A stretch of DNA of 35,428 nucleotides from an uncultured Candidatus Saccharibacteria bacterium (lineage in GTDB: Bacteria; Patescibacteriota; Doudnabacteria; UBA920). The stretch lies in NCBI GenBank assembly GCA_964523855.1, contig CAZGAF010000001.1, forward strand, positions 38,159 through 73,586, given 5' to 3'. The notes below the pieces were generated by a model. The model was not told the DNA's origin, ran no database searches, and worked only from the letters and a program-made list of their open reading frames with translations. How positions within the stretch are numbered: the stretch's first letter is position 1; every line of letters starts with the position of its first letter. Made by a program: the position numbers and the translations under genes. Shown here piece after piece: positions 10,611 to 30,611 of this stretch.

Positions 10611-10809
10611 CGGGCTGTAGTATAGTGGTAGTACGCGTCCACTTGCCCTGTTAAATTTTACCCTTGTGCGGGGTATAGTATAGTGGTAGTACGCGCCCAT
10701 GGGGTGGGTGTAGACTGGGTTCGATTCCCAGTACCCCGACCAAGGGTAGAAATATTTAACAGGGTAAAGGGTGAATGTAGTCTGGGTTTGATTCCCAACA
10801 GCCCAACCA
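10611..10809 (+). ncRNA. interrupted/split tRNA-shaped gene (tRNA-Pro paralog) hosting a whole tRNA in its anticodon loop
   Basis: 10611-10640 carries the acceptor 5' strand, a D arm identical to the inner tRNA, and CGTCC. 10769-10809 carries GGGTG, the T arm, the acceptor 3' strand and ACCA. 10645-10666 pairs with 10741-10765 (22 bp, two bulges). Deviations from a normal tRNA: C1.A72, C49.A65, T-loop TTTGATT and an 8-nt variable region. Confidence 0.5.
10669..10742 (+). tRNA. tRNA-Pro (anticodon GGG), CCA encoded
   Basis: Manual cloverleaf: CGGGGTA/TACCCCG acceptor, GTAT/GTAC D stem, CGCCC-AT GGG GT-GGGTG anticodon arm, CTGGG-TTCGATT-CCCAG T arm, discriminator A, CCA. Confidence 0.9.
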
Positions 10810-10923
10810 GCTTTCGCTAAATCTTTTAACTACTCTAGCCACGAGTAAAACAGAAGGTTTATCGAAAAATGTATAAATTGTTATAACGAAAGCTGTGTCC
10901 GACGAAGTTTTAACGAAGTCGGA

Positions 10924-11683: not shown

Positions 11684-11730
11684 AATATACAACTGCCAGA
11701 GAAACTGGCAAAAGCAGAAACTGATTGCGG

Positions 11731-11913
11731 CTAACAGGAAATTAAAGATTGGCGACTAGACGCTCTGAGACGCCGGTATAACTCTTCGAACAAATCTGAA
11801 CAACATTCGAAAACTTGATCGCGGCTTGGCTTAAACCAAGCTGGGTACCGCATCGTAATGCGCCACGAAATCTCATCTTGTATCTTCCTAATTTCCGGAT
11901 CCTCGCTCGTCAT
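11731..11913 (-). CDS. orphan micro-protein (60 aa)
   Basis: GGAGGA 3 nt upstream of the ATG at 11913 (MTSEDPEIRK...). Its own terminator is downstream. Confidence 0.45.
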   Translation of the reverse strand: MTSEDPEIRKIQDEISWRITMRYPAWFKPSRDQVFECCSDLFEELYRRLRASSRQSLISC

Positions 11914-12211
11914 CCGTCCTCCTCTACAAACTAACTTCAAACACCAAAAATGTGGTCAAAATATTTTTAACAAAACTTTTGGAATATGAATTTTTTGGGG
12001 AAGAGACAGCGCCGAATGTCTCTGTGTTAAGTGGTTTGGAAAAGATTAGCACACGTGCTAAGATCTTTTTCTGTACACAAACAACACTCGGCGCTGAAGA
12101 TCTGGCTCCAACAGTTTTCACCATGGAGCCTAAGCTACATTAGTTCTGAACGAAAGACCTATTTGGTCTTTAGCTGCCGATTACTCGGTCAGCTTTTCGC
12201 CCAGTTGGAGA

Positions 12212-12385
12212 TCAGGTCAAGCAATAATGTCTGAGCTCTTCACCAAGCTCGTGCTTGATCCGTCTCGGATTTTGGCCTGTCGACTCAAGCATTGCTCTTG
12301 TCAACTTTATGGCCTGAATACCAGACGGGTCTACCTGATCAACTTTTATTTCCTCAGTAACAAGGAGCGCGGGATCCTCATTCAT
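12212..12385 (-). CDS. orphan micro-protein (57 aa; not in the ORF track)
   Basis: Hand translation: MNEDPALLVTEEIKVDQVDPSGIQAIKLTRAMLESTGQNPRRIKHELGEELRHYCLT. GGAGG lies 9 nt upstream of the ATG at 12385. Confidence 0.45.
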   Translation of the reverse strand: MNEDPALLVTEEIKVDQVDPSGIQAIKLTRAMLESTGQNPRRIKHELGEELRHYCLT

Positions 12386-12855
12386 CGGAATATTCCTCCG
12401 GTTTGATTGCCCACCAACGGAGGCGGGCTGGAGATTACTAGGTAGTCAAACACCGGTTGATGCTTTTTTGGTCAACCTTGTTGTACAAGGTTAATTACAG
12501 ACTACCTAAATTTGGCGGTGGCTTAACAGGTTACTGCAGGCATATTATTGCAACTTAACACAGCGGGCCAAGGGCGCCCATTACCCTGTCGAAAGTTTTT
12601 GGCTTTGCTTCACCAAAGTGACCTTCCGCCACCATAACTTGTCGGGTGGTTTTCAAACCTGACTCATGTTCCTCTCTCTCCGTGCGCTAGGCCAAAGAAC
12701 ATTAAGTCAAATTCTATTGGAGCGTTTCCGCTCATTTAGCTTAATTAAGCCAAAGACCAAAATTTGGTCACATCCACCCATAACTTTTGCAGACTCTTTG
12801 CGTCTACAGGCATGTAAACTTTAAAACCAAACCTTACATACCTTTAAACGCATTT
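12386..12855 (-). ncRNA. candidate structured RNA / long structured 5' leader
   Basis: No credible ORF on either strand. Contains a 9-bp closing stem (12439-12447/12500-12508) around two hairpins, a GAGCG-GAAA-CGCTC GNRA hairpin (12720-12733 on the minus strand), and two stems that carry G.U on the minus strand but C.A on the plus strand. A CCUCCG segment pairs with the SD of the 57-aa ORF. Confidence 0.35.
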
Positions 12856-12996
12856 TAAAACCCCGCTTCTTGCGGGGTTGTGTTTAGGTGTAATTTTAGA
12901 CCGTGTTCACACCTCACCCCGCGCGCCCAAAAGGACGGCCTTCACAAAGACCGGGCGAATAGAAATGAGGTTGTGTATATTCTGTAACATCTTAAA
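12856..12996 (-). promoter_or_regulatory. candidate transcription attenuator (terminator/antiterminator) or ~140-nt sRNA
   Basis: On the minus strand, GCGGGGT (12916-12922) and GCGGGGTT (12859-12866) compete for the same AACCCCGC (12872-12879). The downstream pairing is followed by UUUU. Confidence 0.4.
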
Positions 12997-13002
12997 AACA
13001 AT

Positions 13003-13029
13003 ATTATACCTATCGCTTTCACCTGTCAA
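13003..13029 (-). promoter_or_regulatory. promoter with consensus hexamers but a short spacer
   Basis: Minus strand reads TTGACA (13024-13029), 15 nt, TATAAT (13003-13008). Confidence 0.4.
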
Positions 13030-13207
13030 GCGAGTTATCAACAAGGGAAATTAAATTGCTCTAATTTCTAATTAACCTAATTGACTTATAAAATGTCTAA
13101 TTTCTAAATTGAGGCTTGGAATTTGTTTAAAATAATTAGGGTAATTATAATAATTTACATACATGTACAACAAATTCGAATTCTCCTAACAAATCTTATT
13201 ATATTTT

Positions 13208-14158
13208 CTAAACGGTAAGATACCCTGAGTTCTGTTCTGCTGCTTTTTCTGCCATTTTATGGACTATATCGTTAAGTTCTTCTTCACTGTAGAATTCGAT
13301 TAAAATTTTACCAGCCTGACCTTGTCTTTGAATTTTAACCTGAGCTCCAAGCTTAATGCGCAGCTCAGACTCCATAGCCATAAGTTTAGGGTCAGGAGCG
13401 GCCGCATCCATGCTCTTTTTGGCTGTAAGTTCACGAACTTTATTTTCAACTTGCCTTACAGTCCAGTTATCCTCCATGGCTTTTTTGGCCATTAAAATAA
13501 TTTTTTCCGGATCCTGTAAACCCAAAAGTCCTCTGGCATGACCTTCGCTTAAGCGGCCTTCTATTACAAACCTTTGGACTTCTGCCGGCAAGTTTAACAA
13601 ACGAACCGTGTTAGCCACCGCAGGACGCGACTTGCCAACTTTTTTTGCCACCTGCTCCTGGGTCAGACTAAACATGGTCATAAGCTTACTGTAAGCCTGT
13701 GCTTCTTCTATTGGGTTCAGTTCCTGGCGCTGGATATTTTCTATAAGCGCAACTTCGAGCTTGGTCTGGTCAACCATCTCTTCTTTTATAATAGCTGGCA
13801 CCATTTTTAAACCTGCCAACTGGCTTGCGCGAAAACGTCTTTCCCCGACCACCAACTCATAGCCTGTTGGAGTTTTTATAACCACCAGAGGCTGAATAAC
13901 CCCATGTTCTCTTATGGAGTCAGAAAGTTCTTTTAAAGCATTTGGTTCAAAAACTTTTCTTGGCTGAAAAGGATTCGGAACTATTTTTTCTATTTCAATT
14001 TGGTCTATTCTGGCTCCCTCATAAGAAACTCTTTCTGAAGTCTGCGCCGGTACAATAGGCGCCGGAGGAGGCGGCACAACCGGTGCGGGCGAAATCCTTT
14101 CAAAACTGTCTAAAGGCTGTATGGTAACATTGGGTTCTGTTTGGCTTATGGGGTCCAT
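13208..14158 (-). CDS. parB: ParB/Spo0J-family partition protein
   Basis: 316 aa; VVGERRFRA and LIENIQRQELNPIEEAQAY boxes, an HTH region, and a Pro-rich N-terminal extension. Confidence 0.9.
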   Translation of the reverse strand: MDPISQTEPNVTIQPLDSFERISPAPVVPPPPAPIVPAQTSERVSYEGARIDQIEIEKIVPNPFQPRKVFEPNALKELSDSIREHGVIQPLVVIKTPTGYELVVGERRFRASQLAGLKMVPAIIKEEMVDQTKLEVALIENIQRQELNPIEEAQAYSKLMTMFSLTQEQVAKKVGKSRPAVANTVRLLNLPAEVQRFVIEGRLSEGHARGLLGLQDPEKIILMAKKAMEDNWTVRQVENKVRELTAKKSMDAAAPDPKLMAMESELRIKLGAQVKIQRQGQAGKILIEFYSEEELNDIVHKMAEKAAEQNSGYLTV

Positions 14159-30044: not shown

Positions 30045-30051
30045 GTGCCCA

Positions 30052-30101
30052 CTCTCCTCCTTTTAGGAGGAGTACTCTGCGAGGCAGAGGGAGGTGGTAA
30101 A
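30052..30101 (+). repeat. two-hairpin repeat element, copy 1
   Basis: CTCCTCC-tttta-GGAGGAG, then CTCTGC-gag-GCAGAG, then GGGAGGTGGTAAA. Confidence 0.8.
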
Positions 30102-30104
30102 GTT

Positions 30105-30458
30105 TTATGCTAAATTCTTTTTTATTTCTTCCACTACTCCATTTAAATTATTTAATACGTCTTTATTTTGAAATCTTATAATTTTGATATTTTGCAGGAC
30201 AATAAAATTGGTTCTTTTAAAATCCTTTTCCTGAGCATTTAAGCTATTGTGGCTTTCGCCATCTAACTCAATCCCCAAATGTTTTTCGTGGCAATAAAAA
30301 TCTATTATATAATAACCTACCCCATACTGCCTTCTAAATTTAACACCAAGCTTACTGCATTTTAGTTGGTTCCACAAAATAATTTCGGGCAAGCCCAAAT
30401 TATTTCTCAGCTCTTTTCTTCTTTGTTTATATTTCGGATTATTGAAAATGTAATCCAT
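30105..30458 (-). CDS. DUF559 (Vsr/restriction-endonuclease-like) domain protein
   Basis: 117 aa; LWNQLK...KFRRQYGVGYYIIDFYC....LGIELDG..H......D..R...L......IRF.N..V matches the DUF559 pattern. Confidence 0.82.
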   Translation of the reverse strand: MDYIFNNPKYKQRRKELRNNLGLPEIILWNQLKCSKLGVKFRRQYGVGYYIIDFYCHEKHLGIELDGESHNSLNAQEKDFKRTNFIVLQNIKIIRFQNKDVLNNLNGVVEEIKKNLA

Positions 30459-30467
30459 AAATATACT

Positions 30468-30517
30468 ACTACCACCTCCCCCTCGATGACTCGGGTACTC
30501 CTCCTAAAAGGAGGAGA
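30468..30517 (-). repeat. two-hairpin repeat element, copy 2 (inverted)
   Basis: The reverse complement reads TCTCCTCC-tttta-GGAGGAG, a third version of hairpin 2 (CCCGA-gtca-TCG(A)GGG), then GGAGGTGGTAGT. Confidence 0.75.
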
Positions 30518-30544
30518 ATATTGCACGCACCTGACAAAGTCCGG

Positions 30545-30597
30545 TTCTCCTCCTTTTAGGAGGAGTCCGTCGCGTTAGCGACGGGAGGTGGTAAAAA
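30545..30597 (+). repeat. two-hairpin repeat element, copy 3
   Basis: CTCCTCC-tttta-GGAGGAG, then CGTCGC-gtta-GCGACG, then GGGAGGTGGTAAA. Confidence 0.8.
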
Positions 30598-30611
30598 ATT
30601 AAGGCAAACAT

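Follow-up and report, generated by a model that had tools for sequence, protein, structure and literature searches.

The window analysed here, i.e., the whole stretch of 35,428 nucleotides, contains a real, selected and multi-domain structured RNA of approximately 470 nt on its minus strand, at 12382-12852, a segment that is free of genes, in an uncultured Candidatus Doudnabacteria genome. Relatives retain its shape to a greater extent than its sequence. It presents the general hallmarks of structured RNAs, which are compensatory changes, a folding energy beyond that of shuffled sequences, and strand specificity. With moderate confidence, this RNA may be read as the body of a very long, folded, cis-acting 5' leader of an operon composed of two small ORFs, sORF1 and sORF2.

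Few bacterial RNAs combine a large size with a complex fold that evolution has maintained, and those that do have repeatedly been a source of new biochemistry. The members of the candidate phyla radiation are uncultured, with a regulation that is almost unknown, and no large RNA of complex fold described for this radiation was found in the literature.

Folding, strand and covariation

The original prediction, made from the letters of the sequence, had proposed a comparison of the fold with shuffled controls and a scan against Rfam. In the comparison, the minus strand of the region reached a minimum free energy of -173 kcal/mol (z -7.08), which none of the 100 shuffles equalled, whereas the plus-strand fold reached a z of only -2.68. 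A 300-nt scan of the whole window had its most extreme minus-strand value at 12601-12900 (z -7.4), and the homologue of the RNA in another Doudnabacteria MAG (L001) gave a z of -7.50 on the minus strand versus -4.95 on the plus strand.

As had been expected, there is no credible ORF: on both strands, the ORFs that overlap 12386-12855 do not exceed 52 aa. The claim that the region is richer in G+C than the housekeeping genes is only partly true, since its 44.5% exceeds the 39.6% of the window but equals the values for tuf (44.8%) and parB (44.1%).

The copy in L001, which is 68% identical to that of the window (versus 82% for the coding DNA of parB), is the only full-length homologue, and its independent fold yields the same architecture. 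When the 118 matched pairs of the two RNAs are compared, 69 are the same, 18 are changed on one side, 28 are changed on both sides, and three are non-canonical. A tool-based count of 110 pairs found 99% of the cells paired and 20 pairs with changes on both sides, a value that was not reached in any of 500 shuffles, while slid partners gave only 0-2 both-side changes. The structure conservation index (SCI) was 0.86 on the structure-guided alignment, and 0.49 on a plain MAFFT alignment, with a column-shuffle z of -7.7. The indels that separate the two copies have lengths that are not multiples of three, and the region has no protein similarity.

The strain variants recovered from sludge and wastewater runs retain pairing in 29 of 36 stem changes when read on the minus strand, versus 19 of 36 on the plus strand. 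Together with the G.U asymmetry, from which a minus-strand transcript had originally been proposed, and the orientation of the promoter, terminator and Shine-Dalgarno (SD) signals, these variants confirm the minus strand as the strand of the RNA. In the variant X4, the blocks of the RNA are approximately 94% identical to the window and sORF1, sORF2 and the neighbouring 106-aa ORF are less than 80% identical, so the RNA is under a tighter constraint than the proteins that it would regulate.

A 5' module formed by a hairpin, the sequence AAAAGUUAYGGG and a closing helix covaries and has been retained in five lineages, and the inner domains diverge strongly across the lineages, those of the distant relatives not being alignable. 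L010 has a related RNA of approximately 550 nt, with a terminator at its end and without a downstream sORF, and both L020 and L004 have the same order of leader, structured RNA, SD and sORF. A search of phages and plasmids by BLASTN ("distant") returned no match, three pattern scans of viral contigs returned either chance matches or none, and a scan of metagenome contigs with GCGCACGGAGAGAG..CCACCCGA returned three chance matches and no homologue.

Metatranscriptome contigs cover pieces of the region at a depth like that of the neighbouring genes; these contigs are unstranded, and DNA is a possible source of them. One contig from a cDNA library (X11) runs unbroken from 12969 to 12452, that is, from inside the micro-ORF described below, through the terminator and into the RNA, and the raw-read RNA runs X19 and X20 gave no reads.

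Helices and junction domains

The architecture runs, in order, from P1 through the closure P0 and the five-way, four-way and three-way junction domains to P5 and P6, and is made up of the following elements:

12799..12852, minus strand: P1, a long 5' hairpin of 21 pairs, with two both-side and five one-side changes relative to L001
12789-12807 (stem 12789-12794/12802-12807), minus strand: P1', a small hairpin that rivals the base of P1 and covaries in five lineages
12641..12784, minus strand: P2 domain, with the motif CAAAAGUUAUGGG and then a closing helix, GUU+GGGUGG/CCACCC+GAC, round four hairpins
12755-12769, minus strand: hairpin P2a
12735-12754, minus strand: hairpin P2b
12720-12733, minus strand: hairpin P2c
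12655-12714, minus strand: hairpin P2d
12673..12688, minus strand: apical loop of P2d, AGCGCACGGAGAGAGA, SD-like and purine-rich, identical in the window, L001, X4 and X11
12517..12633, minus strand: P3 domain, with the closing helix GGUGGC/GCCACC (GGGACC/GGUCCC in L001) round variable hairpins
12439..12508, minus strand: P4, a three-way domain, UAGGUAGUC/GACUACCUA, with P4a (12472-12494) and P4b (12448-12465)
12431..12438, minus strand: 3' arm of P0, the long-range closure with 12789-12796, which holds the conserved UCUCC
12409..12428, minus strand: P5, hairpin GCCCGCC-UCCGUU-GGUGGGC of seven pairs, with one G.U to G-C change
12382..12406, minus strand: P6, hairpin that holds the SD GGAGG (12395-12399) and part of the sORF1 AUG (12383-12385)
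12357..12383, minus strand: P7, hairpin of sORF1 codons 1-3 with codons 6-9, in both genomes

The hairpins P2a-d have 19 both-side changes relative to L001, and the closing helix of their domain covaries in L010 and L020. In the P3 closing helix, three of the six pairs are changed on both sides, and the variant X35 has a swap from G-C to A-U in an inner helix of L001. The pairing of the P4 domain is kept in the variants X4 and X35, including two both-side swaps. The weakest helix of the model is P0, which has five pairs and a single G.U to A-U change. Three single-stranded blocks, AGCGCACGGAGAGAGA, CCAAUAGAA and UCUCC, are invariant, and the P2d loop could form a pseudoknot, through its GGAGA (12678-12682), with the conserved UCUCC (12431-12435), in a region where the sequence does not vary.

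All the stems listed in the original prediction were recovered at the positions given. The pairing TAGGTAGTC/GACTACCTA (12439-12447/12500-12508) corresponds to P4, the hairpin at 12474-12492 to P4a, and the GAGCG-GAAA-CGCUC hairpin at 12720-12733 to P2c, and the stem 12809-12817/12834-12842 lies within P1. By contrast, the alternative hairpin proposed at 12455-12477 found no support, the covarying pairings here being P4a and P4b, and the GNRA tetraloop attributed to P2c is not conserved, given that the loop in L001 is AAGUG.

At the 3' end, the idea that structure could gate the SD is supported by the predicted hairpins P6 and P7, which involve the SD and the start codon, but the suggested partner, CCUCCG (12418-12423), is not the favoured one. 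The favoured partner is UUCCG, located just 3' of the SD in P6 (probability 0.8-0.9), and the predicted probability that the SD is paired in this hairpin reaches 0.71-0.79 for the window, against 0.80-0.93 for L001. Covariation in P6 and P7 is near zero because the sequence is invariant, the P6 stem being identical in the window and L001; in P7, a single U.G to U-A change separates the two genomes.

The attenuator-like element and the small ORFs

The RNA is preceded by a promoter, a micro-ORF and two alternative pairings:

13001..13029, minus strand: sigma-70-like promoter, TTGACA, 17 nt, TAATAT, the proposed driver of the whole unit
12907..12990, minus strand: conserved micro-ORF of 27 codons plus stop, MLQNIHNLISIRPVFVKAVLLGARGEV
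12872..12922, minus strand: antiterminator, with a 5' arm that covers the last codons and stop of the micro-ORF and a 3' arm that also serves the terminator as its 5' arm
12855..12879, minus strand: intrinsic terminator, AACCCCGC-AAGAA-GCGGGGUU and then UUUU (-15.9 kcal/mol)

The -35 and -10 boxes of this promoter are near-identical in L001, equivalents precede the micro-ORF at other loci, and the minus strand has no further promoter match from 13001 to the RNA. Micro-ORFs of 26-35 codons, with an ATG start, were identified by HMM or by eye downstream of parB at 17 other Doudnabacteria loci, of which the weakest three or four are marginal. Relative to L001, the micro-ORF of the window has four synonymous and four non-synonymous changes and a stop-to-stop change, and relative to the X4 variant, three synonymous and two non-synonymous changes and, once more, a stop-to-stop change; across all the loci, no excess of variation at the third codon position was found. 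A hairpin within the micro-ORF (12924-12957) also covaries.

The 34-nt block at 12846-12879, which includes the terminator, does not differ between the window and L001, nor in the variants that span it. In 15 of 17 leaders, folding without the 3' arm of the terminator left its 5' arm paired to the last part of the micro-ORF, and the sequences of the terminator and antiterminator arms covary between loci. This pairing was obtained by folding each sequence separately, in place of RNAalifold, which found no consensus for 15 micro-ORF leaders aligned by plain MAFFT, their 3' parts being out of register. The element resembles an attenuator in that its antiterminator and terminator exclude each other and the micro-ORF ends inside the antiterminator arm; the peptides have no repeated codon run, and no cognate biosynthetic operon lies downstream.

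On the other side of the RNA, the same transcript would include:

12212..12385, minus strand: sORF1, 57 aa, with a full-length L001 orthologue that is 38% identical (E 1e-8)
11975..12095, minus strand: ultra-conserved block with the inverted repeat TTAGCAC-GT-GTGCTAA
11731..11913, minus strand: sORF2, 60 aa, with the SD GGAGGA and a homologue at the same locus in L003

sORF1 is a genuine but fast-evolving small-protein gene, with related peptides in L008 and L018 and no family in either Pfam or NCBIfam. The ultra-conserved block shares identical runs of 23, 30 and 29 nt with L001 and has few variant changes, and a spurious ORF that crosses it has no protein matches.

Around the RNA lie parB, three small ORFs and an ORF of 106 aa, an orphan that matched only itself in both large protein searches and for which an exact-sequence lookup returned no encoding contig. 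The 90% cluster of parB contains only the window and L001. The whole unit has a fixed chromosomal position, between parB and tRNA-Pro. The region had been described as part of a tRNA-adjacent islet, which holds insofar as a tRNA gene is nearby, but tRNA-Pro is 1.6 kb from the RNA and on the opposite strand. The tRNA gene has fragments of tRNA-Pro on its flanks, and its orientation flips among relatives.

Regulatory model, alternatives and known RNAs

The original prediction left two options, a long regulatory leader or an unclassified structured RNA, and this pair is supported by the covariation, the negative results with Rfam and the predicted sequestration of the SD. The leader is the likelier of the two because the RNA sits behind a conserved micro-ORF attenuator. 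The proposed model builds on the motifs of the promoter and terminator, the conservation of the micro-ORF, the exclusive pairings, the covarying architecture and the predicted SD sequestration, from which we infer both the occurrence of attenuation and translational gating and their trigger.

In this model, transcription would start at the promoter (13029-13001), and the first 84 nt would comprise the 27-aa micro-ORF, whose final codons and stop would be contained in the antiterminator's 5' arm. A ribosome at the stop codon would mask the antiterminator, allowing the terminator (12879-12855) to form and the transcript to end, while early stalling on the conserved peptide, or a failure to load, would leave the antiterminator to form, with read-through into the RNA of approximately 470 nt. 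This RNA would then fold as P1, the closed body P2-P3-P4, P5, and finally P6 and P7, which would bury the SD and start region of sORF1.

The translation of sORF1 would need a second event on the RNA body. Candidates for it are the binding of a factor or ligand, an effect of temperature, processing of the RNA, and the standby of a ribosome on the GGAGAGAG loop, which is exposed. The role of the RNA would be that of a second checkpoint after the leader-peptide attenuator, and this need for a second event would account for the conserved shape of the body. Also in favour of a leader are the lack of another promoter match before the RNA, the conservation of sORF1 as a protein, the shared order of elements in L020 and L004, and the unbroken X11 contig. 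A number of points weigh against the leader model. To our knowledge, approximately 470 nt is far above the length of any well-understood bacterial leader. Other such points are the tighter constraint on the RNA than on the sORFs in X4, the absence of an sORF in L010, the near-invariance of P6 and P7, the single full-length homologue, the lack of a nameable ligand or factor, and the transcript evidence, which is weak and unstranded.

Some of these same observations lend themselves to a different reading, held here only tentatively, in which the RNA is a free-standing, large and ornate non-coding RNA of a new Doudnabacteria-specific class, processed from the read-through transcript and acting either in trans or as an assembly of RNA alone or of RNA with protein (a scaffold, decoy or ribozyme), with its adjacency to sORF1 being incidental or secondary. 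The three multi-stem junction domains within a long-range closure, the invariant single-stranded blocks, the conservation above that of the adjacent ORFs in X4, the relative without a downstream sORF (L010) and the 5' module that covaries in five lineages all fit this reading. However, the RNA has no promoter of its own, its 3' end runs straight into the SD and AUG hairpins, it shows no enrichment over the neighbouring genes in the metatranscriptome assemblies, and its inner domains differ greatly by lineage, whereas catalytic and assembly RNAs keep conserved cores. A more specific proposal, which we regard as rather unlikely, is that this is the founding member of a class of Doudnabacteria ornate RNAs of approximately 350-550 nt, with its own biochemical function, whose synthesis would be turned on by an attenuator with a ribosome-arresting micro-peptide; we know of no described precedent for a giant non-coding RNA placed under a switch that senses translation.

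It is improbable that the hairpins are a passive stabiliser or spacer, which would keep ribonucleases off the sORF mRNA or hold back the ribosome or polymerase, with selection for the general degree of structure and not for a specific fold. The sequence does change rapidly, being less similar to L001 than is parB, and in most relatives the intergenic region between parB and tRNA-Pro has strong structure on its sense strand, made of hairpins that are unrelated. The window and L001 nevertheless share homologous helix positions and the same junction topology, invariant loops and joining regions, and an SCI of 0.86; the structure is conserved helix by helix and is therefore not generic "structuredness". 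A non-functional origin, be it a decaying gene or mobile-element remnant at a tRNA integration site, recent common descent, or a plus-strand transcript, is very improbable. The tRNA-Pro fragments, the flipping tRNA and the orphan 106-aa protein would be expected of such a remnant, but recent descent and decay are difficult to reconcile with 28 compensatory changes against three non-canonical pairs, with the variants that keep pairing preferentially on the minus strand, with the lack of any ORF or protein similarity and of indels in multiples of three, or with a promoter, terminator and SD that are all directed along the minus strand.

The unit thus brings together a promoter, a micro-ORF with a terminator and antiterminator, an RNA of approximately 470 nt with three junction domains, a sequestered ribosome-binding site and fast-evolving small proteins. 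If the leader model is true, this would be the largest two-tier arrangement known to us (attenuation and then translational gating) before a gene of 57 aa, and if the RNA is free-standing, it would represent a new class of ornate RNA. In either case, the micro-ORF family of the examined Doudnabacteria loci is a new candidate regulatory peptide.

In relation to known families, Rfam 15 was scanned at the gathering thresholds over the whole window, and permissively (E<=10) over 11700-13300, the L001 homologue and the L010 relative. No family was assigned to the region by either threshold, and the hits otherwise were tRNAs and noise, in the window, L001 and L010 alike. The ROOL, GOLLD, OLE, raiA and HEARO models had no match at either threshold in these three sequences, and the riboswitch classes and T-box leaders had no Rfam match. 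The expected absence of RNase P RNA, tmRNA, SRP RNA and common riboswitches was borne out, there being no match in the region to the first three or to 6S RNA, and ARAGORN found only tRNA-Pro and tRNA-Leu. Group I and group II intron models had no match at E<=10, and no split rRNA, tRNA or protein gene flanks the RNA. The string GUUCAGAACUAAUGUA at 12133-12148 is reminiscent of the R element of group I introns, but lies outside the RNA and is matched by no model. No domains of IscB/TnpB, an IS110 recombinase or a reverse transcriptase lie adjacent, as would accompany an omega RNA, an IS110 bridge RNA or a retron msr-msd, respectively.

Other candidates were also rejected. DnaA-box-like 9-mers lie beside the promoter, but the flanking genes are all on one strand, with no skew switch, which does not fit a replication origin, and the inverted repeat TTAGCAC-GT-GTGCTAA is not of parS form. 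A protein-sponge RNA with repeated AAGUUNNGGG sites was discarded because the enrichment comes largely from the terminator arms, as was a GNRA tetraloop-receptor pair, whose loop is not conserved and which has no CCUAAG partner. The micro-peptide is not a membrane helix, as a type I toxin would be, and L001 has an Avd-like 23S_rRNA_IVP protein, but no reverse transcriptase that would make up a diversity-generating retroelement.

The original prediction had compared the setting with that of GOLLD and ROOL, and this likeness holds in kind (a large, ornate RNA with a tRNA nearby), but not as a family, given the lack of an Rfam match. Like the ornate RNAs, i.e., ROOL (approximately 581 nt), GOLLD, OLE, raiA and HEARO/omega RNA, the Doudnabacteria RNA is longer than 450 nt, with several junctions supported by covariation, a narrow phylogenetic range and a nearby tRNA gene. 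GOLLD and ROOL are frequently found near tRNAs (PMC5737381), and some ornate RNAs form RNA-only assemblies (PMC12286853). Unlike them, the Doudnabacteria RNA is without its own promoter and sits behind an attenuator, its 3' end holds the SD and AUG of a gene, conservation of the inner domains is poor even within a single candidate phylum, and its surroundings are not those of a phage or prophage.

Riboswitch and T-box leaders, and the RNAIII of Staphylococcus with its hld, are long structured or dual-function RNAs and, as here, join a structured RNA to a small ORF, with the SD and start in hairpins. In sequence, the present RNA is unrelated to all of these. Its length is two to three times that typical of riboswitch and T-box leaders, and it has no aptamer or T-box recognisable by Rfam; it differs from RNAIII in that the ORF is at the 3' end of the RNA rather than inside it.

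Finally, the upstream element is like the trpL, hisL and pheL attenuators in its short ORF after the promoter and in the position of the stop, next to or inside the 5' arm of the antiterminator. Unlike these attenuators, it has no regulatory codon run, the peptide itself being conserved (HN.I...LPVF.KAV.W), its cargo is a giant RNA and small proteins rather than a biosynthetic operon, and its untranslated state is predicted to form the antiterminator, such that read-through would be the default. The Trp_leader model gave a sub-threshold match on the L001 copy, with an E of about 1.

Structure and strand of the RNA

The original prediction placed an apparently structured RNA, devoid of credible ORFs, on the minus strand at 12386-12855, and each of its stems was found in place, with no ORF of more than 52 aa overlapping this interval. 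In the comparison with shuffled sequences that it proposed, the minus strand folded well below the controls (MFE -173 kcal/mol vs -128 +/- 6.4; z -7.08), the plus strand reaching z -2.68. The only full-length homologue, from L001, a metagenome-assembled genome (MAG), gave z -7.50 in the sense and z -4.95 in the antisense direction. When the whole window was scanned in 300-nt segments, the strongest minus-strand values were those of 12601-12900 (z -7.4) and 12001-12300 (z -6.6), a ranking which sets aside a palindromic element at about 30.4 kb that has no connection with the RNA. The region had also been described as G+C-richer than the housekeeping genes; it does exceed the window (44.5% vs 39.6%), but only equals tuf and parB.

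In L001, a homologous unit is present downstream of ParB, and the two RNAs, each folded alone, adopt an identical set and order of helices (P1, P0, P2-P6).

Nucleotide identity between L001 and the window
parB coding DNA: 82%
promoter, micro-ORF and terminator: 84%
the RNA: 68%
sORF1: 58%

Helices of the RNA
P1: long hairpin
P0: long-range closure
P2: five-way junction, GUU+GGGUGG with CCACCC+GAC, enclosing hairpins P2a-d
P3: four-way junction, closing helix GGUGGC/GCCACC (window) or GGGACC/GGUCCC (L001)
P4: three-way junction, closing helix UAGGUAGUC/GACUACCUA (window) or GGGCAGUC/GACUGCCU (L001)
P5 and P6: helices 3' of P4, in both window and L001

With the helices matched through their conserved flanks, 69 of 118 pairs are identical, 18 still pair after a change on one side and 28 after changes on both sides, and 3 are non-canonical. 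The G.U pairs, 19 in the window and 15 in L001, would be C.A on the opposite strand. Covariation was counted over 110 pairs after aligning the window with L001 and with two strain variants that had been reconstructed; P2a and P2b were excluded because MAFFT had shifted both. Here 99% of the cells are paired and 20 pairs have both-side changes, a count which rests on one full-length divergent homologue, L001, was reached by 0 of 500 shuffles and fell to 0-2 when the partners were slid by 1-3 columns. The SCI (the ratio of the consensus folding energy to the mean single-sequence energy) was 0.86 on a structure-guided alignment, which leans towards the structure, and 0.49 on a plain MAFFT alignment independent of the proposed structure (column-shuffle z -7.7).

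Logan contigs of runs on wastewater, sludge, bioreactors and groundwater provided further copies, which are window-type, with 92-95% identity, in X4, X11, X2, X15, X17 and X18, and L001-type in X30, X33 and X35. Each listed substitution was scored on single-sequence MFE structures. Loops hold 21 of them; single stem changes kept the pairing in 25 cases and broke it in 5, and double stem changes were compensatory in 4 (e.g., G-C to A-U, C-G to U-A, U-A to C-G) and not in 2. Read on the opposite strand, the stem changes keep 19 pairs and break 17. At the level of sequence comparison, this variant test settles the minus strand as that of the RNA, in agreement with the orientation first proposed from G.U pairs. 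The variants also support the predicted P0, P1, P2a, P2b, P2d, P3c, P4a and P4b separately from the window-L001 comparison. Along the 3.3-kb contig of X4, the RNA blocks are ~94% identical to the window, and all three ORF regions are below 80%.

The absence of any recognised class was borne out, as Rfam 15 at gathering thresholds returned two tRNAs only for the whole window, permissive scans (E<=10) of 11700-13300 and of the related L001 (homologous) and L010 stretches returned noise only, and ARAGORN found no tmRNA. Membership was rejected for each named family tested, and the likeness to ROOL and GOLLD is in kind only. No resembling sequence was found in phage and plasmid collections or viral contigs, nor did searches of the literature yield an account of an RNA of this kind from CPR bacteria.

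The proposed upstream attenuator and the small ORFs

The features surrounding the RNA are the following.

13208-14158, minus: ParB, 316-aa ORF (Pfam HTH_ParB, ParB_N, ParB_C)
13029-13001, minus: sigma-70-like promoter by motif match (TTGACA, 17 nt, TAATAT), kept in L001
12990 (ATG), minus: micro-ORF of 27 codons, MLQNIHNLISIRPVFVKAVLLGARGEV, directly after the promoter
12879-12859 plus UUUU, minus: intrinsic terminator
12212-12385, minus: sORF1, 57 aa, with a full-length L001 orthologue (38% identity, E 1e-8)
11731-11913, minus: sORF2, with a homologue in L003
11129-11449, minus: 106-aa ORF that has a promoter and terminators of its own, ~63% identical to the L001 copy
10669-10742, plus: tRNA-Pro(GGG)

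On the minus strand from ParB to the RNA, no other promoter match was found. Downstream of ParB, 17 further Doudnabacteria loci have an ORF equivalent to the micro-ORF, of 26-35 codons and with the consensus M..(x)HN.I...LPVF.KAV.W, although the weakest of these matches are marginal. Neither Pfam nor NCBIfam contains a family that the peptide matches, and it may have a regulatory role, possibly as an arrest peptide. Of the changes that separate the micro-ORF from its L001 counterpart, 4 are synonymous and 4 non-synonymous; for X4 the numbers are 3 and 2, and both counterparts have TAA in place of TGA. Given that these close pairs look coding-like, that no third-position excess exists over all loci (entropy 1.07, 1.07 and 1.00 by codon position), and that a hairpin within the micro-ORF covaries (GGUCUU/AAGGCC), it is probably under peptide and RNA constraint together.

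An antiterminator takes in the last codons and the stop of the micro-ORF with its 5' arm, and its 3' arm is the 5' arm of the intrinsic terminator. Of 17 leaders, 15 show this arrangement, with arms that covary among loci (GGGGUGAGGUGU/ACACCU..ACCCC, GGGGUUUUGG/CCAAAACCCC, AGGGUUUUGGU/ACCAAAACCCU). The anatomy is that of leader-peptide attenuators, and the L001 leader has a sub-threshold match to Rfam Trp_leader (E about 1). The RNA begins with the nucleotide that follows the terminator U-tract.

At the other end, it had been suggested that the SD of sORF1 is gated by pairing with CCUCCG. The SD is indeed predicted to be paired, but the favoured partner in P6 (12382-12406) is UUCCG, immediately 5' of the AUG, which pairs with CGGAG (predicted probability 0.71-0.79 for the window, 0.80-0.93 for L001), and the next-best is a conserved UCUCC. 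A conserved hairpin, P7, joins sORF1 codons 1-3 with codons 6-9. Given the L001 orthologue and the related peptides in L008 and L018, sORF1 is taken as a real gene.

A second strongly structured stretch lies 3' of sORF1 and holds a nearly invariant block at 11975-12095, with almost 100% window-L001 identity on the minus strand (runs of 23, 30 and 29 nt; parB DNA 82%) and an inverted repeat, TTAGCAC-GT-GTGCTAA. With one common variant, 12061 A>G, the hairpin of this block survives only in the plus-strand reading, so the block may be a DNA operator or plus-strand element. Terminators follow sORF2, and then the separately promoted 106-aa ORF, for which searches of 5.8 billion and of 1.84 billion proteins gave no relative besides the L001 copy and which, by these searches, is a lineage-specific orphan.

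Relatives, transcription and possible function

In the Doudnabacteria loci L004, L010 and L020, a long and then a short hairpin come after the micro-ORF terminator, with AAAAGUUAYGGG next and finally a closing helix GGGnnn/nnnCCC that encloses several hairpins, the assignment of L004 to this 5' module being tentative. A mini-alignment of the module, built by hand from five lineages, comprises 12 pairs; 97% of its cells are paired, and 8 pairs have both-side changes, a count that none of 500 shuffles equalled. The inner domains vary greatly among the window/L001-type, L004, L010 and L020 lineages, and the sense strand between parB and tRNA-Pro is strongly structured in most of the clade.

Exact pieces of the region occur in wastewater metatranscriptome assemblies (X1, 12441-12670; X5, 12210-12403; X6, 12106-12256), and a cDNA-library contig of X11 runs from 12969 to 12452, i.e., from the micro-ORF interior across the terminator into the RNA. 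Their depths resemble those of neighbouring genes; the contigs are strandless, DNA carry-over is possible, and two raw-read runs yielded nothing. This is consistent with, and no proof of, transcription with terminator read-through.

The preferred reading, given an even chance, is a cis-acting leader, in which the micro-ORF attenuator would decide polymerase entry into the RNA, and the folded RNA would keep the sORF1 ribosome-binding site shut until a second input acts on the RNA body. The RNAs of L020 and L004 likewise lead on into an SD and a small ORF. The main rival, a possible though less probable one, is a free-standing ornate RNA freed from the read-through transcript, which is favoured by a conservation of the RNA exceeding that of the adjacent ORFs and by the L010 relative, in which a terminator closes the RNA and no ORF follows.

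A merely protective stack of hairpins is unlikely, as it would leave the helix-by-helix conservation unexplained, and a non-functional remnant or plus-strand element, contradicted by both the covariation and the strand test, is very improbable.

Genomic setting

The source genome of the window belongs to Candidatus Doudnabacteria (Patescibacteria, candidate phyla radiation). Among one-genome-per-species contigs, its ParB is most similar to those of Doudnabacteria MAGs, with L001 in first place (JAEUSF010000004.1; 92% amino-acid identity). No parA adjoins parB; next to it on the upstream side lie tRNA-Leu and a PAP2 phosphatase. Almost all long ORFs are on the minus strand (EF-Tu, EF-G, S7, S12, Maf, ParB, PAP2, UppP, SHMT, LeuRS, MetRS and others), and the RNA sits in an ORF-poor 2.4-kb interval from tRNA-Pro(GGG) to the ParB stop codon. 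This tRNA is flanked on both sides by partial duplicates, a 5'-half and a 3'-fragment (10611-10641 and 10769-10810), and its orientation relative to parB flips among relatives, both of which suggest that recombination or integration once took place here.

In L007, L008, L011, L013, L020, L022 and L023, small CxxC...CxxC zinc-ribbon ORFs of 50-90 aa occupy the place, between parB and tRNA-Pro, of sORF1 and sORF2 in the window, and the interval has the appearance of a hotspot for small proteins that evolve quickly. A 23S_rRNA_IVP ORF (four-helix-bundle, Avd-like) lies between parB and the micro-ORF promoter in L001 (10985-11356), L002 and L020, and is missing in the window. The stretch from the parB stop to the promoter contains AT-rich TCTAATTTCTAA(T/A)T repeats (13053-13139), matched by many unrelated metatranscriptome contigs at higher depth. 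DnaA-box-like 9-mers occur just upstream of the micro-ORF -35 in the window (13032-13040, TGTTGATAA), L016 (TTATCCACA, perfect), L002 (TGTGGATAT), L007, L011 and L021; gene orientation and GC skew speak against a replication origin at this promoter.

Finally, GC-rich nested palindromes (CCACCUCCC..CUCCUCCUAAAAGGAGGAG..GGGGGAGGUGG) lie on the minus strand at 30045-30100 and 30460-30600, on either side of one ORF.

30105-30458: 117-aa DUF559/REase-like ORF, between the palindromes

With z -8.7 and -7.0, these palindromes are the strongest folding signal of the window.
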